The notes under the pieces were generated by a model. The model was given only the letters and a program-made list of their open reading frames with translations, searched no databases and was not told where the DNA came from. The position numbers were made by a program, and so were the translations under genes. A stretch of DNA of 64,000 bases from a virus. Taxonomy: Duplodnaviria > Caudoviricetes. This document shows positions 27,165-51,403 of the stretch, piece after piece. How positions within the stretch are numbered: position 1 is the first letter of the stretch; the number at the start of each line of letters is the position of its first letter. The DNA lies in IMG/VR virus record IMGVR_UViG_3300026484_000515, positions 1,711 through 65,710 of that record. The stretch is one strand, 5' to 3'.

Positions 27165-27728
27165 ATGTTGGATGAGAAAATTATGAAGTATATTCTGGAA
27201 GTAGAAGGAGGATTTGTAAATCATCCAGCTGATAAGGGTGGACCTACAAAATATGGAATAACACAGAAAACATTACAGGATGCTTTTAAGAGAAAAATCG
27301 TAAATCATACAAATGTTAAAGAATTGTCAGAAGATGAGGCTAATTTGATTTACTATAAAATGTATTATATTCCATCTGAAGCTGAATGGATTGAAAAACA
27401 TTTTGGAAAGAAATTAGCTTTGATACATCTGGATGCAGCTATTAATCATGGGGTAAGGAATGCAGAAAAGTTTTTCCAGAAAGTAGTAAATCATATTGCT
27501 GAAAAGAATATTTTGAAGGTAGATGGATTTATAGGACCTGTTACAAAAAGAGTTTCTTTAGAAGTATTAGATTCAGTTTCTAAAATAAACTATGCTTGTT
27601 ATGTGTATCTCTGGAAAAGATTGGAGTTTTATAGAGATATTGTTATGAGAAATTATAAACAAAGAGTGTTTTTTGTAGGTTGGGTAAACAGGTTAATAAA
27701 ATTAGAAGACTATATAAGGAGAATGTAA
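27165..27728 (+). CDS. Glycoside hydrolase family 108 lysozyme (endolysin) with PG-binding C-terminus
   Basis: EGGFVNHPADKGGPTKYGIT, DAAINHG, VDGFIGP.T, FFVGWVNR. Confidence 0.92.
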   Translation: MLDEKIMKYILEVEGGFVNHPADKGGPTKYGITQKTLQDAFKRKIVNHTNVKELSEDEANLIYYKMYYIPSEAEWIEKHFGKKLALIHLDAAINHGVRNAEKFFQKVVNHIAEKNILKVDGFIGPVTKRVSLEVLDSVSKINYACYVYLWKRLEFYRDIVMRNYKQRVFFVGWVNRLIKLEDYIRRM

Positions 27729-34867: not shown

Positions 34868-35188
34868 ATGTATGGATATGAGCATTATCCATTTAATGAG
34901 AAAATACCTAAAAAGTTAAATGGGTTATATCTTGCTCAGGTTGTAGAGAATAGAGACCCTCTTGGTCTTGAAAGGATAAGGGTGAGAATTATAGGAATTC
35001 ATGATATGAGTAATCAGGATAAAGAATATTCAGTATGGGCGAGAAGATGTGTGCCTTCAAAATATTTGAATAATGGTGATTTGCCAGAAATAGGAGATTG
35101 GGTATATGTAATGTTTTTAAATGGTGATTATCAGAATCCTGTATGGTTGGGATGGGCGAGAACAATAGCAAAGGAAGAGGAAGGATAA
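34868..35188 (+). CDS. Baseplate spike gp5, N-terminal OB-fold domain (stand-alone)
   Basis: AQVVENRDPLGLERIRVRIIGIH...WA...PEIGDWVYVMFLNGDYQNPVWLG. Confidence 0.88.
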   Translation: MYGYEHYPFNEKIPKKLNGLYLAQVVENRDPLGLERIRVRIIGIHDMSNQDKEYSVWARRCVPSKYLNNGDLPEIGDWVYVMFLNGDYQNPVWLGWARTIAKEEEG

Positions 35189-35189
35189 A

Positions 35190-35891
35190 ATGCAAAAGAA
35201 AAAGATAGAATATAAAAAGGAAAGGAAGAAATATTTTAAAAGAAAACCAGATGAATCAACGATTTCAAGGTTTTTGCAGTTTAAATTACCTGAGAGGAAA
35301 TCATTAAAATGTTCAGTTTGTAAAACAGAAGAAAAAAGGACAATAGCTTATCCGATTAATCAATCAAGATATAAAAACATAAAAATGTCAGCTTGTGGCG
35401 ATTCTCATGAATGGGAAGAAAAAAGATGGGATGTTGAAAAAATTGAATATTGTAAATGCCAAGTAATGAAATCAGGAACAGGACATTATATTATATGGGA
35501 TTCTACAAAAGACCATGTTGAATTCTGGATAATTCATCCTAAATTGTCTTATGTTTCCTGGAGAAATAAAGGTGAAAAGTATGAGAGAAATAGAGAAAAA
35601 GTTTATTCATTTAATGATAAATGTGTTTACATTTACATTGGAAAAGATAGAATAACTTTAATAAAAGGTGATGAAAAAATAGAAATAGATGGTGAAATGA
35701 AAATGGAAGTTCATGGAAATATTTGTGTGAAATCTCATAAATCTATAAATGTGGAAGCAGCAGATTCTATTACATTGAAAGCACCTGAAATCAAACTTGA
35801 TGGTGAAACAACAATAACAAAGAACTTGCATGTAGAAAAGAATGTTTACGTAAAGAAGGATGTTTATGCAGAGGATTGTCATTGTGATTAA
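35190..35891 (+). CDS. Baseplate spike gp5, C-terminal beta-helix part
   Basis: SGTGHYIIWDST...IIHP, 8-residue IGKD/IKGD/IDGE/VHGN repeats, ITLKAPEIKLDG. Confidence 0.78.
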   Translation: MQKKKIEYKKERKKYFKRKPDESTISRFLQFKLPERKSLKCSVCKTEEKRTIAYPINQSRYKNIKMSACGDSHEWEEKRWDVEKIEYCKCQVMKSGTGHYIIWDSTKDHVEFWIIHPKLSYVSWRNKGEKYERNREKVYSFNDKCVYIYIGKDRITLIKGDEKIEIDGEMKMEVHGNICVKSHKSINVEAADSITLKAPEIKLDGETTITKNLHVEKNVYVKKDVYAEDCHCD

Positions 35892-35929: not shown

Positions 35930-37045
35930 ATGATATCATTTAAAACTTTTCTTTTAGAAGGCGGCAATGTAAAAGTAGGAGAAAAACAGGCAGATACAAT
36001 TGAATTAACGAAGATTCAGAGGAAGAAGTTTGTAAAAGATTTAATTGATTTTCTATGGAATTTGAATTTAGAATTTGAGAAAAAATATGGTGTAAGGATA
36101 TGGATTGAAAAATCTCTTCTTGAAAATGGAGATGTATTTTCAGGTTCATCGGAGCATTTTGTTAAAGTAGAAGAAATACCAGATGAGGAATTTGCAAAAT
36201 ATAAACCTCAAGTAGGAGATATAGATGTTCAGGTTCCAAAAACTTTAGAAGAGGAAATACAGGAATTTTTAAAACCAGGATTAAAAATAAAAGGATGGGA
36301 ATATATAGGAAAAAGCGATACATCAATAGGACAGATTTCAACATTGTGGTATTCTGAAAAGTGGAAATTATACCCTCAAATAGATTTTGAATTTGTTGAT
36401 TTTATAGAAGAAGGATTACCATCTCCCTGGGATAAATTTGCTCATTCTTCTGACTGGAATGATATCAAAAAAGGAATAAAAGGAGTATTTCACAAATGGT
36501 TGCTTGCTTGTGTTGATTATGCGTTTCCCAAACAGATTTGGTTAATGAAAGGAAAAAGAAATCCCAAGATAGTGAGAGTCATGATTCATGAACATGCTTT
36601 TTCTGTTTTTAAAGGTTTAAGGAAAAAATATGATTTTGCAAGAGATGAAAATGGAGAAATAATAAAATACAAAGGAGAACCTGTTTATGTAGAAATTCCA
36701 TCTAAAAAAGCATCTTATACAAAAGATTTAGAAACAATTTTCAAACTTCTCTTTAGAAGAGAACCACAACCCGGTGATATTCAGAAGATGAAATCTTTCA
36801 CAGGTCTAATAGATTTGATAAGAAGGTATATAAAAGACTATGAACAGATAAAAATGATTGTAAATGCTTTTGTTGATTATTGTTTTTCACCAAAATCTCA
36901 AGTTTTGTATAGAAATGATTTGTTGAAAGATATAAAAGTTAAAGCAACTGCTCTTAATATCTTATCAGAAGAATTGGGTGTTCCATTGGATATAGAAAAA
37001 ATAATAGCAGATTATAAAAGAGCAAAAGAGCAAAAATTGAGGTAA
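35930..37045 (+). CDS. Pol-beta-superfamily nucleotidyltransferase with capsid-targeting-type leader
   Basis: MISFKTFLLE leader; FSGSS...GDIDVQV...QIDF catalytic pattern; KGVFHK. Confidence 0.65.
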   Translation: MISFKTFLLEGGNVKVGEKQADTIELTKIQRKKFVKDLIDFLWNLNLEFEKKYGVRIWIEKSLLENGDVFSGSSEHFVKVEEIPDEEFAKYKPQVGDIDVQVPKTLEEEIQEFLKPGLKIKGWEYIGKSDTSIGQISTLWYSEKWKLYPQIDFEFVDFIEEGLPSPWDKFAHSSDWNDIKKGIKGVFHKWLLACVDYAFPKQIWLMKGKRNPKIVRVMIHEHAFSVFKGLRKKYDFARDENGEIIKYKGEPVYVEIPSKKASYTKDLETIFKLLFRREPQPGDIQKMKSFTGLIDLIRRYIKDYEQIKMIVNAFVDYCFSPKSQVLYRNDLLKDIKVKATALNILSEELGVPLDIEKIIADYKRAKEQKLR

Positions 37046-37047
37046 AA

Positions 37048-37911
37048 ATGCTAAGCAGAATTTTAAAACATCGTAAGAGAATTTTAGGAAATCAATTTCA
37101 GTCAAAAATAATTGATTTATTTCCATCTTTTAAAATCTTTTTAGCAGAAGGAGATATATACATAGATTTTTATGCTGGGAATGATAATAATTCGGGAAGG
37201 ACAAAAGACAAACCTATAAAGACACATCATAGGTTATTAGAAATAATGAATGAGATGAAAAACAATGGTGCTACAAGGATTGTTGTTTCAGTTATTCCAA
37301 GATGGTATCAAGTGGATTTTGGTGTTGATTATAGGGACCATACAGGTTGGTTGCCTGTATTAGATATACAAGAAACAGTTTATGAATTTAATGGAGCAAT
37401 AATTGATGGAACTGGATATAAATTTGGTGCAAGAGTAATTTATATGCAAAATAGGAATAGTTCAATTATAAGAAAATGTTATGTAAAGAATTGTATGATA
37501 ATTAATACAGTTGGTGGTGCTTTTGCAACCGGATTTAATACAGTAGCATTTCCTAATTATTATCAGGGAGATTATGATACTGCTCCTTGTGAATTACATT
37601 TGGAAAATATAAAGGCATTTAATCGTCATGTGGGGTATACTAATAGTTATGCTGATAAAATAATTGTGGAAAAGGAAGTAGAACATTATTATTCAGAAAC
37701 TTCAGCTTTTATTTACTGTAATGAAATAGATTATGTGAATTTTAAATCTAAAACGATTGTTCCTGGGGTTATTTTCAGACGTAATTCAGGTGGTATATAT
37801 GGTTCTGAAAATGTTGATACAAATGGAATTTGCACATTGGATGAATTTAAATCAAAGTATTCAAGTTGGTTTGAAAGTGCAGGAGAACCAGTTTATGTAA
37901 AAATATCATGA
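37048..37911 (+). CDS. Right-handed beta-helix (pectin-lyase-like) protein
   Basis: DIYIDFYAGNDNNSGRTKDKPIKT cap motif; GAIIDG. Confidence 0.6.
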   Translation: MLSRILKHRKRILGNQFQSKIIDLFPSFKIFLAEGDIYIDFYAGNDNNSGRTKDKPIKTHHRLLEIMNEMKNNGATRIVVSVIPRWYQVDFGVDYRDHTGWLPVLDIQETVYEFNGAIIDGTGYKFGARVIYMQNRNSSIIRKCYVKNCMIINTVGGAFATGFNTVAFPNYYQGDYDTAPCELHLENIKAFNRHVGYTNSYADKIIVEKEVEHYYSETSAFIYCNEIDYVNFKSKTIVPGVIFRRNSGGIYGSENVDTNGICTLDEFKSKYSSWFESAGEPVYVKIS

Positions 37912-37919
37912 GGTGAAAA

Positions 37920-38861
37920 ATGAGATTTTTGAACAGAATAAAGTTTGTAAAGGATAATAAAAAGAGATTTTTTAATTATCATTTGCATTTTACAAAAGCT
38001 GAATTGTTTAAAACCAACATTTTAAAATGGAGTGATGGTGATATATATGTAGATTTCATAGAAGGTTCTGATGCTAATGATGGTTTTTCTAAAAATAGAC
38101 CGATAAAAACTCATTTGAAGTTATTTGATACAATAAAGAATCTTTTAACTCAAGGAGTGAGAAATATAACAGTTTCATTTAAACCAGGATGGTATAGAAT
38201 AAAAGGTGATTCTGTAAATGGTGATTGCTGTTGGTTAGGAATACCATATGTGAATCAGAAATATAATATAACTTTTGAGTTTAATGATTCTATTTTAGAG
38301 TTTATAAGTGGTGTTCCTGTAAGATTGTTTGGTTGTCCTGATAAGGGAAGTAATGTTTCATATACTCTTGCTCCTGATGTTACAGTTCAAAATGCTATTT
38401 TTTCATATGCAACAGAAAGCACTATAAGGGGTGGAAGTTATTTTTCTGCTGGCTATAAAGTTGATTTATATCCTTCTACACATCATGGTTGGTATGATGA
38501 CAATACACTTACTTATCATGTAAAAAATGTGAAATGTTTTGAACATGGTGATGCTTTTTATTTGAATTCATCACAAGATATTGTTGAGGTAGAAGACTTT
38601 GAAATATACTCTACAGGTGAATATGAAGGAAATTATTGGTATAAAGTGTTTTATGTTAATAGATGCAAGTATGTGAAAATTCTTAACACAATGTATTATT
38701 CTTGTCCTGACCTTTATAGAAATGCACAACCTATAAATGCTCATTTGGCTATAAAAGTTCCATATATGACTTATGAAGAATTTAGACAAAAATTTAAATC
38801 TTGGTATGATAAATTTAAAACATATAAATTGTTCAAAATGGCAACATCTTATGAGAATTAG
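37920..38861 (+). CDS. Right-handed beta-helix protein, paralog of 37048
   Basis: DIYVDFIEGSDANDGFSKNRPIKTH cap motif; shared C-terminal EEF..KF.SW. Confidence 0.6.
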   Translation: MRFLNRIKFVKDNKKRFFNYHLHFTKAELFKTNILKWSDGDIYVDFIEGSDANDGFSKNRPIKTHLKLFDTIKNLLTQGVRNITVSFKPGWYRIKGDSVNGDCCWLGIPYVNQKYNITFEFNDSILEFISGVPVRLFGCPDKGSNVSYTLAPDVTVQNAIFSYATESTIRGGSYFSAGYKVDLYPSTHHGWYDDNTLTYHVKNVKCFEHGDAFYLNSSQDIVEVEDFEIYSTGEYEGNYWYKVFYVNRCKYVKILNTMYYSCPDLYRNAQPINAHLAIKVPYMTYEEFRQKFKSWYDKFKTYKLFKMATSYEN

Positions 38862-42282: not shown

Positions 42283-42692
42283 ATCCTTTTGAACTTGCAA
42301 AGAAATTAATGAAAGGTGAAGCAATTACAGATGATGAATACCGTTTAATTCAGAAACATTACTATCTTTTAAGGCGGATATTTGCTTCCAGAATGTATTT
42401 TGCATATGTTTTGAATAATACTAACATTTACACATTTACACCAGAAATGATAGCAGATTATATGAAGTATGTAATTCCATATGTGGTTTATCATTATCGT
42501 TTGAAAAAAGAGCAATATCTCAAAAATATCTTTCCTAAAAAGAAAGATAAAGAGGAAAAGAAAGAATTTTATGAGTATCTTACAAGACTTGGATATGATT
42601 ATAAAACTTATGAAATGGCAAAAGAAATGAGTGAAGAATATAAGGAAATAGAAAAAGAATTCAAAAAAGTTAAAAAGGAGTTAAAGAAGTGA
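42279..42692 (+). CDS. gp62: Clamp loader small subunit gp62
   Basis: MNPFE start, size and position after gp44. Confidence 0.65.
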   Translation: MNPFELAKKLMKGEAITDDEYRLIQKHYYLLRRIFASRMYFAYVLNNTNIYTFTPEMIADYMKYVIPYVVYHYRLKKEQYLKNIFPKKKDKEEKKEFYEYLTRLGYDYKTYEMAKEMSEEYKEIEKEFKKVKKELKK

Positions 42693-43813
42693 AAGATGCT
42701 TTTTATTTGAGAATTTTGAAAATACCTTTTAAAGAAAGGATATATCATCGTTTTTATGAGAATGGTAAGAGAAAAGAGGAAATTTTTGATTTTCCTGTTT
42801 CATTTGTTATCAAAAACAATGCTTCATTAAATGACTATCCGGAACATTGGGGAGTTTATAAGAAATTCATTAGCAATGAAGAGTATTTGTTAGTAAAAGA
42901 TAAGAAGATTGATACAGATTCTTATAAAGTTGAAAAACCTGATATAAAAACTCTTTTTACAATTTTAAAATATCCAGAACCTATTAGATATGATAAATCA
43001 AAAATTCGGATTTTAAACATAGATATAGAAGTTCATTCGGAAAAAGAATTTCCAAAACCAGAAATTGCAAAACATCCGATTGTGTCTATTACATGTCAGG
43101 ATATGGTAGAGAATAAATTTTGGGTTTTTGCTTTAGGAAAAGAAGTGGAAATAAAACAACCAAATGTGAAAGCATTCTTTTTTGATTCAGAAAAAGAATT
43201 GATTGTTAAATTCTTAAAATTTTATCAAAAATTCCATCCGGATATCATAACAGGATGGTATATAAGTGGATTTGATATCCCTTATATTCAAAATAGAATT
43301 GTCAATCTTTTCCAGAATTCTGAAAAAAGATTAATTGCTCTTGCTACATTTTCTTTAATTTCAAAAAAGTTAATGAAAGAAGTTATAGATGTATATCTAT
43401 CTAAGAGACCTTTGAAAGATTTAGAAGATTACCTAAAAACAAAAATCCATGGTGCAGCTGTTCTTGATTACATAGACCTTTATAAAAAATTTCAACTTAA
43501 AAAGTTATCATCTTATTCTCTTGATTCTGTTGCTTCATTTGAATTAGGGGAGCATAAGATTGATTATTCGGAATATCTTTCTCTTAAAAATTTGTATAAG
43601 GAAAACTTTCAAAAGTTTATAGAGTATAACATACGAGATGTTGAGTTGGTCTATCTTATAGACAAAAAAGTAAAGTTTATTGACTTGACGTTGCTTATGA
43701 GTTATGCTGCAAGAAGTGATTTTGAAGATGTTCTTGGTGTAGTTAAAAGATGGGAAAAGAAAATATTCTATTATTTGATGACTGAGTATAAAACATTTAT
43801 TTGCAAAAATTAA
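42689..43813 (+). CDS. gp43: DNA polymerase gp43, N-terminal/3'-5' exonuclease half
   Basis: ExoI DIEV, ExoII DIITGWYISGFDIPYI, LDYIDLYKK, SYSLDSVA..ELGE.K, ExoIII YNIRDV. Confidence 0.92.
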   Translation: MKDAFYLRILKIPFKERIYHRFYENGKRKEEIFDFPVSFVIKNNASLNDYPEHWGVYKKFISNEEYLLVKDKKIDTDSYKVEKPDIKTLFTILKYPEPIRYDKSKIRILNIDIEVHSEKEFPKPEIAKHPIVSITCQDMVENKFWVFALGKEVEIKQPNVKAFFFDSEKELIVKFLKFYQKFHPDIITGWYISGFDIPYIQNRIVNLFQNSEKRLIALATFSLISKKLMKEVIDVYLSKRPLKDLEDYLKTKIHGAAVLDYIDLYKKFQLKKLSSYSLDSVASFELGEHKIDYSEYLSLKNLYKENFQKFIEYNIRDVELVYLIDKKVKFIDLTLLMSYAARSDFEDVLGVVKRWEKKIFYYLMTEYKTFICKN

Positions 43814-43832
43814 ATTTTTGATGGTGAAAATT

Positions 43833-45962
43833 ATGATGTCCCTTATTAAAATTTCTGAAATATCAGAAAAAGATTTAAATTTATTGAAGATAAAAGATTT
43901 AGTTGAAATAAAAGAAGCTAATCAGTTTAAAAAACTTTTAATTAATGATTTGTATTATTATTTGAGAAATCATGGAATAGAAGAAGATGAAGTTTTTGAA
44001 ATTATCATGAATCTGTTTCTTATGAAAATTTATGATGAATTAAAACATATCGATAAGCCAGAAGAAGAACTGGATTTTCAAATAAAACCAGAAGATTATT
44101 TTAATCCTGATAATTTTTATAAGAGAATGAAAAAATTGTTATTTGAAGTTTATACTGAATTGTTTTATGAAGATGTTGAAATAGCAAGAAAAAAAGAAAT
44201 TTTAAAACATAAGGAAAAAGAAAAAATTCTTTTAGAAATTGTTTTTCATCTTCAAAAATTTAAATTTAGAAGTTTAAGGTTTTTGGATGAGGATATTATT
44301 GGAGATATTTTTCTTAATTTTTTACATTCTATTTTCAGACAAAATAAAGGTCTTTTCTTTACTCATCCTAATATATGTCAATTTGTATGTAAATCTTTAG
44401 GTATAGAGAAAGTTAAAGATGATTTAATTGAAAAACAGTCTTGTAAATTTATACTTGATCCATCTTGTGGTTCAGGTGCTTTTTTAATATCAGCTTTGCG
44501 TTTATTGTTTTTGAATTGTAGTGAAGTAGATAAAAGAAAATTTGCATCTAAAATTTTATACGGAATTGATAGTGATCCTAAGAACGTAATTTTATGTAAA
44601 GTGAATATGTTTGTTCATGGTGATTGTTTTGGAAATATCTACAAAGGAGATGCTTTAGAACCTCTTATTGATTTACCATTTCCTTTTGTAAAAGAAGAGA
44701 ATATTGAAAGATTTGATAATGGAGTAACTAAAGAAAGTTTAAAGGGAGGAAATGGAGTAGATTTCATTATTTCTAATCCTCCATTTAGTTTAAAGAAGAA
44801 ATTTAAAGAATGTGAACATTTTAGAATGAAAGATTTTATTCCTTTTAAGAATGGTGTTACTAATGCTTCAGAATGTCTTTTTATTGAAAGATGGTTTCAA
44901 CTTCTTAAACCGAAAGGTCGTTTGGGTGTTGTTTTACCTTGTGCATTATTTGATAGTAAGGAATATTTAGAAGCAAAACTATTATTTTCATGTTATTTTA
45001 AAATTGTGGCAATTATAAGTCTTCCTGAACATGTTTTCTTTCCTTATGCGCAACAGAAAACGGTTTTAGTTTTTGCAGAGAGAAGGGATATTAAGGAAAG
45101 TAATGAACTTTATAATGTTTTACTAAAAAACGGAAAGGAAGGATTAGTAAAAAGAATAGGAACAGAAAAGATTATCTGTTTTAATGTTGAAAATATAGGT
45201 TATAGAAGGTTAAAAAGACAAAGAAATATCATTACAGAAAAAGTGGATAAAAATGATCTTACAGATGATTTAGCAAAAATAATACTTGACGCATTTGAAG
45301 GGAATTTTACTGAATCTTCTAAAGTAATTGTAAAAAGTTTAAAAGATTTTTGGCAAAATCAAAATTTGCATGTTTCTTCTTTCAAGAAAGATAGAGAAAC
45401 TATTACACTTAAGGAAATGGGTTGGAAAATAGTAGCTGTTGAAAAAATAGAATATGAAGAATTGAAGGATATAGATGTTGAAAATTTATTTTTGTGCGAA
45501 ACAGGTGACATAGTTTCTGGCGGAGCAGGTATTATAACGCCCAAAAAACTTAGTGCCACTACTTCGTCCAATAGAGAAAGAATTTTAAAGAAAATAAAAA
45601 GCGGAAAATTCGGTCGTCTTAAGGAAGGGGATGTAATTATAGCGCCTGTTAGAGTTTATCAAGGCAAGATAGCTGTTGTGCTGGGGGAAGCGTCTAATTT
45701 TCTCTTTTCCAAGGACTTTATAGTTCTCAGAAAGGAAGATATTACTGATCCCCTGGAGTCTCTTTTTGTGTTCAAAGTTTTAACTGAAAAGGAAAATCTT
45801 GATAGACTTATGGAACTTTCATCTACGGGGAAAAGTGGGTATCCTAAAATAAAAGACAAGGAGAAAATTTTGGAAATTGGATTTTTTAAACTTGAAATTG
45901 AAAAGAAAGAACTTAAGGAACTTAAAAGTCTTTATGAAACAATTTATAAGAAACTTTTTTAA
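43833..45962 (+). CDS. N6-adenine DNA methyltransferase (HsdM/type IIG-like) fused to C-terminal target-recognition domain; no nuclease domain
   Basis: KIYDE, KGLFFTHPNI, ILDPSCGSGAFL, YGID, ISNPPF, LFIERW..LLKPKGRLGVVLP, ISLPEHVF; TRD-like L..GDVII...Y.GKIAV...FIVLR; GGTGA SD supports ATG 43833 (ORF track start 43818). Confidence 0.9.
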   Translation: MMSLIKISEISEKDLNLLKIKDLVEIKEANQFKKLLINDLYYYLRNHGIEEDEVFEIIMNLFLMKIYDELKHIDKPEEELDFQIKPEDYFNPDNFYKRMKKLLFEVYTELFYEDVEIARKKEILKHKEKEKILLEIVFHLQKFKFRSLRFLDEDIIGDIFLNFLHSIFRQNKGLFFTHPNICQFVCKSLGIEKVKDDLIEKQSCKFILDPSCGSGAFLISALRLLFLNCSEVDKRKFASKILYGIDSDPKNVILCKVNMFVHGDCFGNIYKGDALEPLIDLPFPFVKEENIERFDNGVTKESLKGGNGVDFIISNPPFSLKKKFKECEHFRMKDFIPFKNGVTNASECLFIERWFQLLKPKGRLGVVLPCALFDSKEYLEAKLLFSCYFKIVAIISLPEHVFFPYAQQKTVLVFAERRDIKESNELYNVLLKNGKEGLVKRIGTEKIICFNVENIGYRRLKRQRNIITEKVDKNDLTDDLAKIILDAFEGNFTESSKVIVKSLKDFWQNQNLHVSSFKKDRETITLKEMGWKIVAVEKIEYEELKDIDVENLFLCETGDIVSGGAGIITPKKLSATTSSNRERILKKIKSGKFGRLKEGDVIIAPVRVYQGKIAVVLGEASNFLFSKDFIVLRKEDITDPLESLFVFKVLTEKENLDRLMELSSTGKSGYPKIKDKEKILEIGFFKLEIEKKELKELKSLYETIYKKLF

Positions 45963-45973
45963 AAGGAGGGAAC

Positions 45974-47578
45974 ATGTCAGACAAAAAAATAATAGGTGCT
46001 TATGTAAAAGATATAAATCCTGGTGTTTATAAGAATGTATGTGTCTTTGATATAACATCTTCTTATCCTAATCAAATAATTCATTGTAACATTTCACCAG
46101 AAACTTATATTCCGGAAATTCCTGAAGATTTGAGATACATTTTAACAGAAAGACTTGAAGATCACTTAATAAGACCACCTAAAATTCAATCAGAATTAGA
46201 TGATATTTTGAGGAAAGTTTTCTTTGATTTGGATTGGTTTGAAGAGAAAGTAACACCATATTTGAAAGCAAATGATTTAATCCTTACAGCAAATTTAACT
46301 CTTTTTAGGAAAGATAAAATAGGTTCATTTGCAAGATTGACAAAGATAACTTTTGAAAACAGAAAAAAGTGGAAGAGAATTTATCAAGCGCTTGAGAGAT
46401 TATACGGTTTACTTGAAAAAGGTGAAATTTCTCAAGAGAATTTGAAGAATGAAATAAAAAAGCTAATTGAAACATATCAGGAGAATTTTGAAATTGTAGC
46501 TTTCTTGAAAGAACTTTTGAGTAATGAAAGAATAACAAAAGAAAAATTGCATGATTTTATGACAACTGCTGATTTGATTCAGTATGCTCTTAAAGTTGAA
46601 ATCAATGCATTTTATGGTGCTTTTTCTAATACAGGGTTTATGTTCTTTGAGAAAAATATGGCACAGACCATTACAGCTATGGGACAGTTATGTATAAGAG
46701 GAGTTGCTAATGAAATAGAAAAAAGAATTAAGGGTTGTGTTAACATATACAATGATACAGATTCTTGTTTCCTCATGTTTCCTGAAATAGAAAACCCTTA
46801 TGATATTCTGAAAAAAGAAGAGGAAATTAACAAAGTAATTAATGATTATTTTGATAGACTGACAGAAGTTTTAAATTTAACTGAAAGAAGAATTTTTATG
46901 GAAATGGAAACAGTTTCTGATATTTCAATTTTCATGGCTAAAAAGAAATACATAATGAAATTGATTTGGAAAGAAGGTGTTGAATATGATAAAGATGAAA
47001 AGCCATATCACTATAAGATAAAAGGATTTGATGTAATAAAATCTTCTACGCCAGAATTTGCAAGGGAAAGACTTGAAAAGGTTATAGATATGACGTTTGA
47101 TTACTTGATGGGTAAAAGTGATTTGAATATTATAAGGAAATATTTGCAAGATGAATACAGAAACTTTCTTAAAGCACCTGTTGAAGATATTGCTTTTGCA
47201 AGACAGGTGAACAATATTGGTAAGTTTTTGTCAAATTCAGGACTTTACAAAAAAGGAACTCCTGTTCATGTTAAAGGAGCAATCATTTACAATCGGTTGG
47301 TAGATATTCTGAATTTGCCTGTTGATAAGATATATGATGGTGATAAAATAAAGTGGTTATATGTTCATGAAGATGGGAAGTATAAGACAAATTCTATTGC
47401 CTTTAAACATTTTATGCCGAAAGAAATATTAAGAGAATTTAAGATAGATTATGAGAAGCAATATCAAATGGGAATGCTTGCACCTCTTGAACCTTTATTC
47501 AAGGCAGTTGGTTGTTTGGATAAGATAAGTCTTGAAACTGAAAAACTGATGAGTCAAAAGAGAAATAGATTATTTTGA
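45974..47578 (+). CDS. gp43: DNA polymerase gp43, C-terminal polymerase half
   Basis: GAYV, FDITSSYPN, NISPET, K.EINAFYGA, ITAMGQ, YNDTDS, AKKKY, KSSTP, TPVHVKGA; own GGAGG SD; C-terminal clamp-binding-like LF. Confidence 0.93.
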   Translation: MSDKKIIGAYVKDINPGVYKNVCVFDITSSYPNQIIHCNISPETYIPEIPEDLRYILTERLEDHLIRPPKIQSELDDILRKVFFDLDWFEEKVTPYLKANDLILTANLTLFRKDKIGSFARLTKITFENRKKWKRIYQALERLYGLLEKGEISQENLKNEIKKLIETYQENFEIVAFLKELLSNERITKEKLHDFMTTADLIQYALKVEINAFYGAFSNTGFMFFEKNMAQTITAMGQLCIRGVANEIEKRIKGCVNIYNDTDSCFLMFPEIENPYDILKKEEEINKVINDYFDRLTEVLNLTERRIFMEMETVSDISIFMAKKKYIMKLIWKEGVEYDKDEKPYHYKIKGFDVIKSSTPEFARERLEKVIDMTFDYLMGKSDLNIIRKYLQDEYRNFLKAPVEDIAFARQVNNIGKFLSNSGLYKKGTPVHVKGAIIYNRLVDILNLPVDKIYDGDKIKWLYVHEDGKYKTNSIAFKHFMPKEILREFKIDYEKQYQMGMLAPLEPLFKAVGCLDKISLETEKLMSQKRNRLF

Positions 47579-48519: not shown

Positions 48520-49422
48520 ATGATTTCGTTTAAGGGATTTCTATTTGAACAATTTAAAAGGGGAAAAGGAATTCAACATTTAATTGGAATGAAACCTCTG
48601 GATTTTCTTCAACTATTACAAAAAATAGAAAAAGAATTGCCTAATGTAAAAGTTAAAATAACGGAAAAAGTGGATGGTGCTGCACTTACAATAGGATTGG
48701 ATAATGAAGGAAAATTCTTTATTCAGACAGCAAGAAGTGATAGAATTTATCATGGTAGTGAATTTGTAAAATTTGCTAAAGAAAGAAATAAACCATTAGA
48801 TATAGCAAAAGCATATGAAAATCTGTTTAATTTTCTAAAGAATTATCAACCTTTACAAAAAGTTTTACGGAAGTATTTTAATGGAAAAGGATATGGAATA
48901 CGAGGAGAAGTTTTATGGATTGAACTTGCACAGGAAATAAAGGAAAAAGGAATTAGATTTGTTGCTATTGAATATGATAAAAACAAAATAGGACAGAAAT
49001 TAACTTTTGTTCCTTTTAAAGTTCTTTATCTTGATGGAACAGAATTTGAAAAAGAAAAAGAATTGATAGAAGATTTGAAAAAGATAAGCAATAGGGAAGT
49101 GAAAATAGAAACTCCAGATTTGGAAGTGGGAGATTTAAATTTTGAAATAGTTTTAAGAGATTACAGGGAGTTGTTAAAGAAGTATAAAGACATTGAAAAA
49201 ATTTTGAAGTCAAGAAAAAAGAAAGATAAAGAGGTAAAAGAAGTTCTGAAAAAGTTGATTCAGGAGTTGCAAAGAAAGTTGGCAAATGAAATTATGCAGA
49301 AAGTTAAACATGGAAAGTTTGGAGATGAAATTGAAGGATTGGTTATTGACTTTTGTGGTGTTCAATGCAAAATTCAGTCTGAAACATTTAAAAAGAAAAA
49401 ATTTGGTGAGGGTAAAGAATGA
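48520..49422 (+). CDS. ATP-dependent ligase-like (covalent nucleotidyltransferase) protein with capsid-targeting-type leader
   Basis: MISFKGFLFE leader; IQHL; motif I TEKVDG, III RGEVL, IV EGLV, V KIQ. Confidence 0.65.
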   Translation: MISFKGFLFEQFKRGKGIQHLIGMKPLDFLQLLQKIEKELPNVKVKITEKVDGAALTIGLDNEGKFFIQTARSDRIYHGSEFVKFAKERNKPLDIAKAYENLFNFLKNYQPLQKVLRKYFNGKGYGIRGEVLWIELAQEIKEKGIRFVAIEYDKNKIGQKLTFVPFKVLYLDGTEFEKEKELIEDLKKISNREVKIETPDLEVGDLNFEIVLRDYRELLKKYKDIEKILKSRKKKDKEVKEVLKKLIQELQRKLANEIMQKVKHGKFGDEIEGLVIDFCGVQCKIQSETFKKKKFGEGKE

Positions 49423-50081
49423 AGATAGTTACTTTTTCTGGATTTGCTTGTAATGGAAAAAGCACAATGATAGATGTTTTTTCAAAAATATTTGGAAATG
49501 AATATAACGTCTGGATTTTTAAAGAAACAGCAAGATTAGTAGATGATACAATGGCTTATTTTGAGGAGAATTTAGAAATTGGAGATTTTGAAAAGAATAT
49601 TCTTTGTTCAGAAGTATTTTGCCATGATATAATGTTTGAAATGAAAAAGAAAAATGAAGATGGATTGATATTGAAAGACAGAAGCATCTTTGATGTTCTT
49701 GCATTCATGGTTTTGAGAAATGAAACTGATATATGCAATGTTTTGGATTTTTTAAGAGAAAATTATGATGGTGAAAAGCATTTATCAAACTTGTATGATG
49801 AAATCCTTTTTATAAGAGGAACAAGTGATGAGAATTTTATAAGTTCCATTTTAGAAGAAGATGAATTGCGAAAAAAGACTATATCAAATTTCTTTTCTTT
49901 ACAGGATAAGTTTGAGGAGGTATGGAAAAGAATAGTAAAAACATATGAAGAGGAAACAGAAAAGTCATTAAATGTAAAAGTATTTTCTCATCCCCATGAG
50001 TCTAATTTGACAATGTGGTTAATATATGCTAATATATGTTCCCTTTTGGGAAAGAAAAGTAATTTTGTAAAGGAGTTTTAA
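49419..50081 (+). CDS. P-loop nucleotide/nucleoside kinase (AAA_28/dNMP-kinase-like)
   Basis: SGFACNGKST, ETAR, DRSIFDVLAF. Confidence 0.75.
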   Translation: MKIVTFSGFACNGKSTMIDVFSKIFGNEYNVWIFKETARLVDDTMAYFEENLEIGDFEKNILCSEVFCHDIMFEMKKKNEDGLILKDRSIFDVLAFMVLRNETDICNVLDFLRENYDGEKHLSNLYDEILFIRGTSDENFISSILEEDELRKKTISNFFSLQDKFEEVWKRIVKTYEEETEKSLNVKVFSHPHESNLTMWLIYANICSLLGKKSNFVKEF

Positions 50082-50226: not shown

Positions 50227-50411
50227 TGAAAAGGAGATTTGATGGATATTTCTGTTATTATAGGGAAAAATGGAAAGGATGTAAGAAACACAACAATATA
50301 TGTTGCTATGTATGTGAATATTTCAATGAATGCAAAAAGGAATTAGAATTTAGAAAGTGGATGAATAAACATTGTGAATTTGAAAAAACTTATTGTCCAA
50401 ACATGGTGTGA
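50226..50411 (+). CDS. small Cys-rich protein
   Basis: 61 aa with C...C...CCYVCEYFNEC...C...C. Confidence 0.6.
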   Translation: MKRRFDGYFCYYREKWKGCKKHNNICCYVCEYFNECKKELEFRKWMNKHCEFEKTYCPNMV

Positions 50412-51403
50412 TGAAATACCTTCCTAAACATGAAGAAGAACAGATAGTCTGGTTGCTTCCATTAGATTTATTAGAACAGAAACCAGCAGGGTTTTGGTTT
50501 AGATGTCCCGTTTGTGGTGATTCAAAAATTTCGTATAAAAAGAAAAGAGGATGGATTCTAACAGGAAGAGAACATTTAGTTTATTATTGTTTTAATTGTG
50601 GCTATACTGCTTCATTTAAGAGATTTCTTAGAGAATATTTTCCGGAAATATACAAGGAATATTATGAAAAGAAACTGAAGGAGTATTGGAAAGAAGTAAA
50701 GAAAGAAAAAACAATTGTTTATAAGAAAAAAAGTGAAATAAAAGTAGAAAAAGAAGAAACAGAAAATGAAATTAAACTAATTTCAATTGATAAGTTTAAG
50801 TGGATAAATGTGGAAAATTCACTTGAAGCATCAAATTTTCTTAAAAAAAGGAAAATACCAGAAGAGAAGTGGAATTTCTTTAGATATTCCTTGGATGAAG
50901 AAAATGATAAAGGATTTTTGATAATTCCTTTCTTTTATAAGAATGAAAGTCAGATTTATGGTTATCAAATTCGTTCTTTAGTAGATAAAGTTTTCAAGAT
51001 TAGAATTCCGGAAGGAAATCCAAAAGTTTGGAATTTGTTCAATGTTGATTGGAATAGAGAAGTCTTTGTTTTTGAAGGTGTATTTGATGCTATTTTTGTT
51101 GAAAATTCAATAGCTTTACTTGGTGCGGATATTCCTAAGTATCTTGAAGGGAAATTGAAAAATTGTATTTTTGTTTTTGATAATGATTTAACAGGTCTGG
51201 AAAAAACTGAAAAATATCTTAAAAAAGGATTAAAATGTGTAATCTTCCCTTTGAATTTTTATTATAAGGATATAAATGATTGGGTAAAAGAGGAAAATCC
51301 TGAAGGTATTGAAGAATTTTTGAAAAATCATATCTATGAAGATTGGAGAAAAGCTAAAGTTTTAATAGGAATGAAAAAGAAAATTCTAAAAAGAGGTTTA
51401 TAA
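50411..51403 (+). CDS. gp61: DNA primase gp61
   Basis: FRCPVCGDS..KKRG, YCFNCG zinc finger; TOPRIM FEGVFDA, FDND, KDIND; start taken at ATG 50411 (ORF track 50393). Confidence 0.93.
   Translation: MKYLPKHEEEQIVWLLPLDLLEQKPAGFWFRCPVCGDSKISYKKKRGWILTGREHLVYYCFNCGYTASFKRFLREYFPEIYKEYYEKKLKEYWKEVKKEKTIVYKKKSEIKVEKEETENEIKLISIDKFKWINVENSLEASNFLKKRKIPEEKWNFFRYSLDEENDKGFLIIPFFYKNESQIYGYQIRSLVDKVFKIRIPEGNPKVWNLFNVDWNREVFVFEGVFDAIFVENSIALLGADIPKYLEGKLKNCIFVFDNDLTGLEKTEKYLKKGLKCVIFPLNFYYKDINDWVKEENPEGIEEFLKNHIYEDWRKAKVLIGMKKKILKRGL

Follow-up and report, generated by a model that had tools for sequence, protein, structure and literature searches.

A Pol-beta-superfamily nucleotidyltransferase and an RNA-ligase-like protein with near-identical leaders: candidate head-loaded end-repair enzymes of a T4-like phage

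The locus and its two leader-bearing genes

We analysed a 64-kb stretch of DNA (the window; 29% G+C) from the IMG/VR record IMGVR_UViG_3300026484_000515, a fragment of 65,710 bases from an uncultured T4-like phage, with an estimated completeness of 37%. On its + strand an open reading frame (ORF) of 371 residues (35930-37045) lies directly behind two ORFs for a gp5-like baseplate hub and spike; judging from its predicted structure, we are confident that it encodes a nucleotidyltransferase (NTase) of the Pol-beta superfamily, with an intact active site and from a family without a Pfam entry. A second ORF of 300 residues (48520-49422, also + strand), 10 nucleotides behind the RNase H gene, encodes an RNA-ligase-like protein, here called the partner. 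Both proteins begin with a ten-residue leader that resembles the capsid-targeting sequence (CTS) of T4 internal proteins, and we propose below that they are probably carried in the phage head and injected. The features of the two genes are:

35930..35959, + strand: NTase leader MISFKTFLLE (residues 1-10), a candidate capsid-targeting propeptide by its near-identity with the start of ORF 48520; predicted cut after Glu10 (L-L-E)
35960..37045, + strand: predicted mature Pol-beta-superfamily NTase (residues 11-371, starting GGNVK) and stop codon, from the AlphaFold2 model, structural neighbours and phrog_19290
36143..36148, + strand: G72-S73 of the hG[GS] motif, invariant in the 31 sequences of alignment A1 and the 57 of A4
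36218..36226, + strand: D97-I-D99, the metal-binding DxD on strand 97-103 of the model, invariant in the 31 and the 57 sequences
36383..36391, + strand: D152-F-E154, the third carboxylate, on the neighbouring strand 150-156; D152 invariant in both sets, E154 invariant in the 31 and present in at least 90% of the 57
36443..36496, + strand: family signature H172..K189 (HSSDWNDIKKGIKGVFHK), candidate NTP- or nucleic-acid-binding residues
48520..48549, + strand: partner leader MISFKGFLFE; four of four close family members keep M-I-x-F...E10
48550..49422, + strand: RNA-ligase-like covalent nucleotidyltransferase with KxDG at 48667-48678, from fold matches, invariant motifs and fusion in relatives

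When the 88 non-overlapping window ORFs of at least 50 residues were compared in all 3,828 pairs, the NTase and its partner had seven of the nine residues at positions 2-10 in common, the next best pairs (eight of them) having four. A degenerate DNA pattern for the leader matches these two places only in the 65.7-kb record, and a six-frame scan adds just one ORF, of 29 codons; this bears out the earlier, sequence-only reading, in which the pair had been singled out as near-identical and as the only ORFs starting in this way. Eight of the 30 bases differ between the two leader stretches, and four of the eight identical residues are written with different codons; thus the likeness is kept at the protein level and does not stem from a recent DNA copy.

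In T4, ipII and ipIII (NC_000866) start MKTYQEFIAE and ipI starts MKTFKEF, so that F4, F7, L8 and E10 of the window leaders stand where T4 has Y4, F7, I8 and E10. According to a review of the T4 work (PMC9026906), a protein is loaded into the head on the strength of its first ten residues, with positions 4 and 7 of the CTS serving targeting and positions 8 and 10 serving processing, and the gp21 protease cuts after L/I-x-E.

The nucleotidyltransferase: fold, active site and family

The AlphaFold2 model of the NTase, made with 31 homologues, is of high confidence (predicted local distance difference test score, pLDDT, 94.9; predicted template modelling score 0.90), with disorder confined to residues 1-9 (pLDDT below 50). 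Structure searches return Pol-beta-fold NTases only as neighbours of its N-terminal two thirds, and the minimal alpha-beta NTase fold is supported in that the neighbours found by Foldseek and by VIA-align over residues ~25-175 are NTases, in line with the NTase assignment of the sequence-only reading. The top VIA-align matches are the cGAS-like receptor 8gjw (Z 7.2, 131 residues) and TUT7 (Z 7.0), followed among the family X polymerases (PolX) by Pol beta (Z 6.7, 190 residues), African swine fever virus (ASFV) PolX (Z 6.4, 163/176) and Pol lambda, Pol mu and TdT (174-185 residues); lower down stand TRAMP, GLD-2, OAS, ANT(2''), MenT, alarmone synthetases and CdnG (Z 5.7). Foldseek matches to the model are weak and of the same kind. 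The ESM Atlas structure search gives viral clusters, then DUF6267 (template modelling score, TM, 0.50) and PolX (TM 0.41), with AbiEii clusters among those listed. With every Z-score below 8, these matches settle the superfamily without settling the subfamily.

The three active-site motifs that had been picked out from the sequence alone are present as GSS (G72, S73), GDIDV (D97, D99) and QIDFE (D152, E154), and H172, D178, G182, K184, G185, H188 and K189 of the family signature are invariant in the 57 family sequences. Searches of Pfam (E up to 0.1) and NCBIfam with the NTase matched no family; in particular neither the query nor the 57 members match a PolX Pfam domain (palm, thumb, fingers or HhH) or SMODS, Mab-21 or AbiEii. 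Searches of solved-structure sequences with the protein or with profile A1 gave nothing meaningful, and alignment of the NTase profile by hhalign with the DUF6267 domain fused to a relative's ligase gave a probability of 0.1%, from a single-sequence template of low sensitivity.

The NTase does match phrog_19290 ("unknown function") with E 1.5e-36. In GenBank the family occurs in 39 phage records, all annotated "hypothetical", from T4-like phages of Campylobacter (Firehammervirus), Vibrio, Xanthomonas and Stenotrophomonas; it is found on 246 IMG/VR contigs, and forms 797 clusters at 50% identity among 1.84 billion representatives.

The ligase-like partner

The model of the partner is modest (pLDDT 71). 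It lacks an OB domain, and its C-terminal part, made of helices, does not correspond to any known Rnl accessory domain. Its best fold match is 5cot (Z 8.1, 186 residues), then REL1 (Z 6.9) and T4 Rnl2 and Rnl1 (Z 6.7). The covalent-nucleotidyltransferase motifs I (KxDG), III, IIIa, IV (EG) and V are all present, and K50, D52, G53, E130, F147, E272, G273 and K284 are invariant in 58 family sequences. Among these 58 members the Pfam family RNA_ligase (PF09414, at E <= 0.01) is matched by four (best E 4.1e-8) and RNA_lig_T4_1 by one, and no DNA-ligase family is matched; the window partner itself reaches PF09414 with E 0.0075, under the cut-off. The ligase profile A3 gave nothing meaningful against solved-structure sequences. 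Close relatives are few: three were found in an index of 5.8 billion proteins, all with the same leader, and tblastn against GenBank phages gave no match. A complex prediction for NTase residues 11-371 with partner residues 11-300 scored 0.00, which is evidence neither way.

Leaders across relatives

Leaders were parsed in 78 of the 81 sources of our locus survey (80 IMG/VR loci and the window). In 70 of these 78, [LIVMF]-x-E closes the leader and G[GS]N comes next; counted as distinct leaders, 51 of 56 end in E, and all 51 have one of L, I, V, M or F at P3. This constancy at the putative cut site is found in leaders that range from 6 to 38 residues and vary in sequence, and, together with the match to the T4 residues named above, it strengthens the earlier suggestion that the leader is of the T4 capsid-targeting type. 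The homologue in Firehammervirus (CP220/IBB_35; AEF56792.1 in IBB_35) has the leader MKLSELMFILE before GGN, and the published virion proteome of IBB_35 comprises 38 proteins (PMC3322345). Three parsed loci start at MGGN.

Among the 150 best cluster representatives, 67 carry an [LIVMF]-x-E leader of up to 45 residues, in 11 a longer N-terminal part also closes with [LIVMF]-x-E ahead of GGN, 11 have other N-termini and 16 were left unparsed. The leaderless members start at GGN, and the leader is therefore an extra element in front of a domain with its own start at GGN; cutting at the predicted site would recreate the N-terminus of these leaderless members.

Leader-like N-termini are also found on genes around the NTase gene. 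A first control for shared leaders (31 matches against ~16 expected) had a high background and was replaced by a count binned by distance: 68 of 322 distinct ORFs within three genes of the NTase have a leader-like start, as have 37 of 454 at four to eight genes and 13 of 343 farther away, set against 220 of 8,810 internal methionines taken as a control.

Two groups of small neighbouring ORFs were seen in the same survey. One, a conserved ORF of ~124 residues starting MLLKEFFG or MKLYEFFG, directly precedes the NTase gene in 19 of the 20 loci that make up its cluster (L020, L027, L028 and ~17 others; for example 9613-9981 of L028). The other comprises small families with M-R-A-x-E-F-[IV]-x-E starts, encoded downstream of the NTase gene. 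Both groups look like small internal proteins, and neither has a Pfam match. Within the window, SFKRFLRE at 50606-50635, inside the primase ORF (50393-51403), resembles the leader core and is probably a primase motif or a chance occurrence; it cautions that not every such peptide is a tag.

Coupling of the NTase to the ligase and to a third domain

That the NTase and the ligase-like protein form a pair, as the sequence-only reading held, is upheld by their co-occurrence in relatives. In a six-frame recount with a broader partner-family profile, 73 of the 81 sources have a ligase-like domain: 54 carry it in frame directly after the NTase, as one fused protein, and 19 as a separate ORF; in the other eight none was found on the + strand of the DNA examined. 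Where the ligase is separate, 15 of the 19 domains start no more than 27 nucleotides from where the NTase frame ends; the window, with 11.5 kb between the two genes, is the most dispersed case.

At the joints of the fused proteins [LIVMF]-x-E occurs 5-14 residues before the ligase's first conserved motif in 43 of 43 distinct forms, and in stand-alone ligases the leader ends at the same place in nine of ten distinct sequences. Each separately translated piece is thus tagged, and fused pieces have a cut-type site at their joint; tags and joint sites together are what head-loaded, protease-processed cargo would need.

In 65 of the 81 sources the ligase is followed by a further domain, marked by an HxGH signature (NTase, ligase and HxGH domains fused in 43, ligase and HxGH in 10, separate ORFs in 12). 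It matches CTP_transf_like in Pfam (29.8 and 27.2 bits, cut-off 21) and, weakly, FAD_syn, and several of the separate HxGH ORFs bear a leader of their own. An HxGH-domain profile (that of the last seed alone) found no match in the window, a weak negative. Among the 72 NTase-bearing ORFs that a motif filter picked out in these sources, 47 are 556-2135 residues long; some long forms add LysM and Phage_lysozyme, Amidoligase_2, a second NTP_transf_2 or DUF6267, and in one database homologue YceG is added. Ejected proteins commonly contain cell-wall hydrolase domains. As far as these sequences indicate, the window NTase is a module of a widespread T4-like set, comprising an NTase, an RNA-ligase-like enzyme and often an HxGH nucleotidyltransferase, which is here split and separately tagged.

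The Xanthomonas phage X1 keeps this order in separate, leaderless genes beside a baseplate hub gene: first the NTase, then a hypothetical protein, then the ligase-like protein and last the HxGH enzyme. In the Vibrio phage Va1 (734-2080 and 7472-8926 of locus L087) a leaderless homologue has an annotated CCA-adding tRNA nucleotidyltransferase on one side and a 484-residue protein with a K-T-D-G ligase motif on the other, a neighbourhood that fits RNA repair. The NTase gene also lies beside, or 4 kb from, a radical-SAM/QueE-like 7-deazaguanine gene in CP220 (L001, 4978-5937) and X1 (L086, 1-720); this may be coincidence, or may indicate a link to DNA modification.

Neighbouring genes in the window

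Three further features near the two genes bear on their setting:

34868..35891, + strand: gp5-like baseplate hub/spike in two ORFs (34868-35188 and 35190-35891), directly 5' of the NTase gene; Phage_base_V at E 1e-9, phrog_430
37048..37911, + strand: ORF downstream of the NTase gene (ATG start, GAGG upstream) with a 34-residue N-terminal extension ending SFKIFLAE before GD (37126-37149); weakly, a possible third leader-bearing cargo
49419..50081, + strand: P-loop kinase-like ORF, leaderless, overlapping the ligase stop codon (ATGA); AAA_28 at E 1.4e-5, under the cut-off; a possible end-healing kinase

The gp5-like cell-puncturing protein is split into an OB-domain ORF (34868-35188) and a beta-helical spike (35190-35891) and has no lysozyme domain; an endolysin-like ORF (27165-27728) lies 7 kb upstream. 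Downstream of the NTase gene, ORFs 37048-37911 and 37920-38861 are paralogous, with a common motif GDIY[IV]DF..G.D.N.G....PIKTH and no Pfam or PHROG match, and the second has ..ILKWSD ahead of GD. We take this motif to resemble the beginning of fibre or spike proteins of the beta-helix (pectate-lyase-like) type. The kinase-like ORF behind the ligase gene has weak thymidylate-kinase PHROG matches and no solved relative in a sequence search of structures; an end-healing kinase and a NadR-type kinase are both options.

Elsewhere PHROG matches identify UvsY, UvsW-type helicase, gp55, gp46/47, UvsX, gp41, gp32, RNase H, primase, the clamp and clamp loader, a split DNA polymerase, terminase, baseplate hub and wedge, and proteins of the neck and of tail completion. 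Two ORFs encode the T4-type DNA polymerase (phrog_262, N and C parts) in a region comprising 42689-43813, 43818-45962 and 45974-47578; the 714-residue ORF between the two halves matches phrog_2713 and, weakly, a DNA-methyltransferase PHROG. The head gene block is not within the 37%-complete record.

A proposed head-loaded repair module

On balance we think it probable, from the sequence comparisons above, that the NTase and the ligase are loaded into the head, trimmed by the prohead protease and injected, to act as end-healing and sealing enzymes, most likely on RNA. The ten-residue leader would dock each protein into the prohead core, and the protease would then cut the NTase after L-L-E10, a motif that is there in the sequence, leaving an N-terminus that starts GGNVK. 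The enzyme would be packaged together with the DNA and would enter the cell by ejection; there the NTase would add nucleotides to damaged 3' ends for the ligase to seal, as the fusion of the two in relatives and the analogy with RlaP/RNA-ligase pairs (see below) suggest. The substrate would most likely be RNA, such as tRNA cut by host defence nucleases, with repair ready before any phage gene is expressed; within this proposal we consider RNA roughly twice as probable a substrate as DNA. Three functions had been offered for the NTase from its sequence, namely repair of tRNA 3' ends, nucleotidylation of host proteins and interference with nucleotide immune signalling. Because of the linkage to a ligase, the mending of nucleic-acid 3' ends is the one that we favour, and the other two are less favoured.

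Several observations pull the other way. The leader is dispensable for the family, as the enzymes evidently work in its absence: GGN is already the start of the protein in 45 of the 150 best cluster representatives, and in two cultured phages, X1 and Va1, the homologue begins MGGN. No match to a prohead protease (PF03420) was found in the record, itself only 37% complete. The ligase gene stands among replication genes, a poorer fit to late expression at the time of head assembly, and the DNA ligases come close behind the RNA ligases among the partner's fold matches (Z 6.6-5.2; T4 DNA ligase 6.4, LigIV 6.3). For the NTase, the structural Z-scores are middling, all below 8; PolX gives the longest structural alignments, which keeps DNA in view as a substrate; and the spacing from GS to DxD is 23 residues, above the canonical 9-13. 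The proposal assigns no role to the HxGH domain, of which the window profile search gave no match, and we found no experiment on any member of the NTase family. Finally, TATAAATA, which we take to be the T4 late-promoter word, lies near neither the NTase nor the ligase gene, a result that is uninformative: the word has two matches in the window against 9.65 expected from shuffles, and the late promoters of this phage therefore probably differ from those of T4.

Comparison with known systems

The closest parallel for the leader is provided by T4 IPI, IPII, IPIII and Alt, which have an N-terminal peptide of ~10 residues with aromatics at positions 4 and 7, an aliphatic residue at 8 and Glu10. 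In both phages the leader is common to unrelated proteins, and the NTase gene adjoins baseplate genes, as do genes of the packaged T4 Alt family according to the part of PMC5512222 that treats it. Unlike T4, whose cargo comprises small restriction inhibitors and an ADP-ribosyltransferase, the cargo here is an NTase and a ligase, for which loading and cleavage are predicted, and in relatives it is a multi-enzyme polyprotein with cut-type sites at its domain joints.

For function, the nearest precedent is RlaP. As described in the relevant passages of two sources (bioRxiv 10.64898/2025.12.29.696909; PMC7824862), RlaP NTases adjoin RNA ligases and add one or two nucleoside monophosphates to damaged RNA 3' ends, which lets over-trimmed tRNAs regain function after ligation. 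The window family similarly ties a Pol-beta NTase to an RNA ligase (73 of 81 sources), and resembles RlaP by this context and not as a member: it has no PF10127 match, and those passages do not describe RlaP as head-targeted or ligase-fused. Membership of RlaP (PF10127) was tried directly; the protein gave no match, nor did the 65.7-kb record at E up to 10, and alignment of the family profile with T4 NrdC.11 by hhalign gave a probability of 0.9%, from a single-sequence template of low sensitivity.

With family X polymerases such as Pol beta and ASFV PolX the NTase has in common a palm-plus-thumb-like arrangement over 163-190 residues and the GS/DxD/D layout; unlike them it has no PolX Pfam domain and no detected 8-kDa or fingers domain, and Z is only 6.4-6.7. 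The partner is like the Rnl2/Rnl5-type ATP-dependent RNA ligases in its match to 5cot and in its invariant KxDG, motif III Glu, motif IV EG and motif V Lys, and differs in that just four of 58 members reach PF09414 and in its helical C-terminal region.

Like the polyvalent injected proteins of phages and conjugative elements treated in sections of Iyer et al. 2017 (PMC5512222), the long relatives (556-2135 residues) string together disparate enzymes, sometimes with a lysozyme, and are probably delivered with DNA. In those sections, however, the Pol-beta NTase of polyvalent proteins is minimal, comes mostly from firmicute conjugative elements and is fused to ArdC-N, whereas the window NTase is a single-domain split form. 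In a term search of that paper (PMC5512222), RNA ligases came up solely where they are said not to associate with the 2H domains of polyvalent proteins, and 'cytidylyltransferase' did not occur.

Alternative explanations

The same pair could instead form a DNA-repair kit, in which a minimal PolX-like gap-filling or end-extending polymerase and a ligase mend the incoming genome, possibly with ribonucleotide patches, after nicks, gaps or breaks from packaging, restriction or nuclease cuts. The length of the PolX alignments (Pol beta, Pol lambda, Pol mu, TdT and ASFV PolX), the PolX match in the ESM Atlas and the DNA ligases among the partner's fold matches speak for it. So does the class of 5cot, which seals duplex nicks that have an RNA 3'-OH strand, and in bacterial non-homologous end joining ribonucleotide addition precedes sealing. 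Yet no PolX Pfam domain is found in the NTase or its 57 relatives, the partner model lacks an OB domain and its family's sole ligase matches in Pfam are to RNA-ligase families, and Z-scores fail to separate PolX from terminal RNA NTases; we regard this explanation as unlikely. A similarly low probability attaches in our view to an RNA-repair pair that stays in the cytoplasm, the shared N-terminal peptide then serving as a translation start context, or in regulated turnover or in assembly of the two proteins, and not as a head tag. The leaderless representatives (and X1 and Va1), the place of the ligase gene amid replication genes and the lack of a protease match in the record would all suit such a pair. 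Against this, the leaders, diverse in sequence and length, have [LIVMF]-x-E as their last three residues in nearly every case; all 43 distinct fused forms repeat this site at an internal joint; unrelated small neighbouring ORFs bear the same kind of leader; the leader matches the experimentally mapped T4 CTS residue by residue; and the codon differences argue against a shared translation-start element.

If head loading is accepted, the NTase could still be an injected effector that acts independently of the ligase and not in repair, by nucleotidylating host proteins or by making or consuming signalling nucleotides in the manner of CD-NTases or cGAS. Its top single structural match is indeed the cGAS-like receptor 8gjw (Z 7.2, 131 residues), OAS, CdnG, MenT and small alarmone synthetases are also among the matches, and T4 Alt, as presented in part of PMC5512222, is a precedent for injected protein-modifying enzymes. 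These structural matches, though, span the minimal NTase core only, no SMODS, Mab-21 or AbiEii Pfam match was found in the query or the 57 members, and a ligase whose KxDG, E and K motifs are intact is constantly fused or adjacent to the NTase, which points to a shared polynucleotide-end substrate, so that we consider an effector of this kind very improbable.

Implications

Returning to the head-loaded repair pair that we favour, we suggest tentatively, as something possible that falls short of probable, that many T4-like lineages load a repair kit of a new Pol-beta NTase, a new RNA-ligase branch and an HxGH nucleotidyltransferase into the head, either as a polyprotein that the prohead protease cuts or as separately tagged proteins, and inject it to reverse damage done by host defence nucleases to tRNA or to the entering DNA before their own genes are expressed. 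In open-access papers and bioRxiv we found no paper on a capsid-targeted NTase or RNA ligase, nor on this family. If the proposal is right, the kit would count as the first RNA-repair system of the packaged kind and as a new class of T4-type internal proteins, enzymatic and not inhibitory in action, and the idea of internal proteins would come to include a multi-enzyme repair module beside the small restriction inhibitors and Alt. It would also give a function-linked context to a sizeable unannotated phage family (PHROG 19290), and the natural split and fused forms, in which every separate piece is tagged, would offer a comparative test of what a capsid-targeting signal requires. Phages could, on this reading, forestall defences that cut tRNA or nick DNA as soon as they enter the cell.

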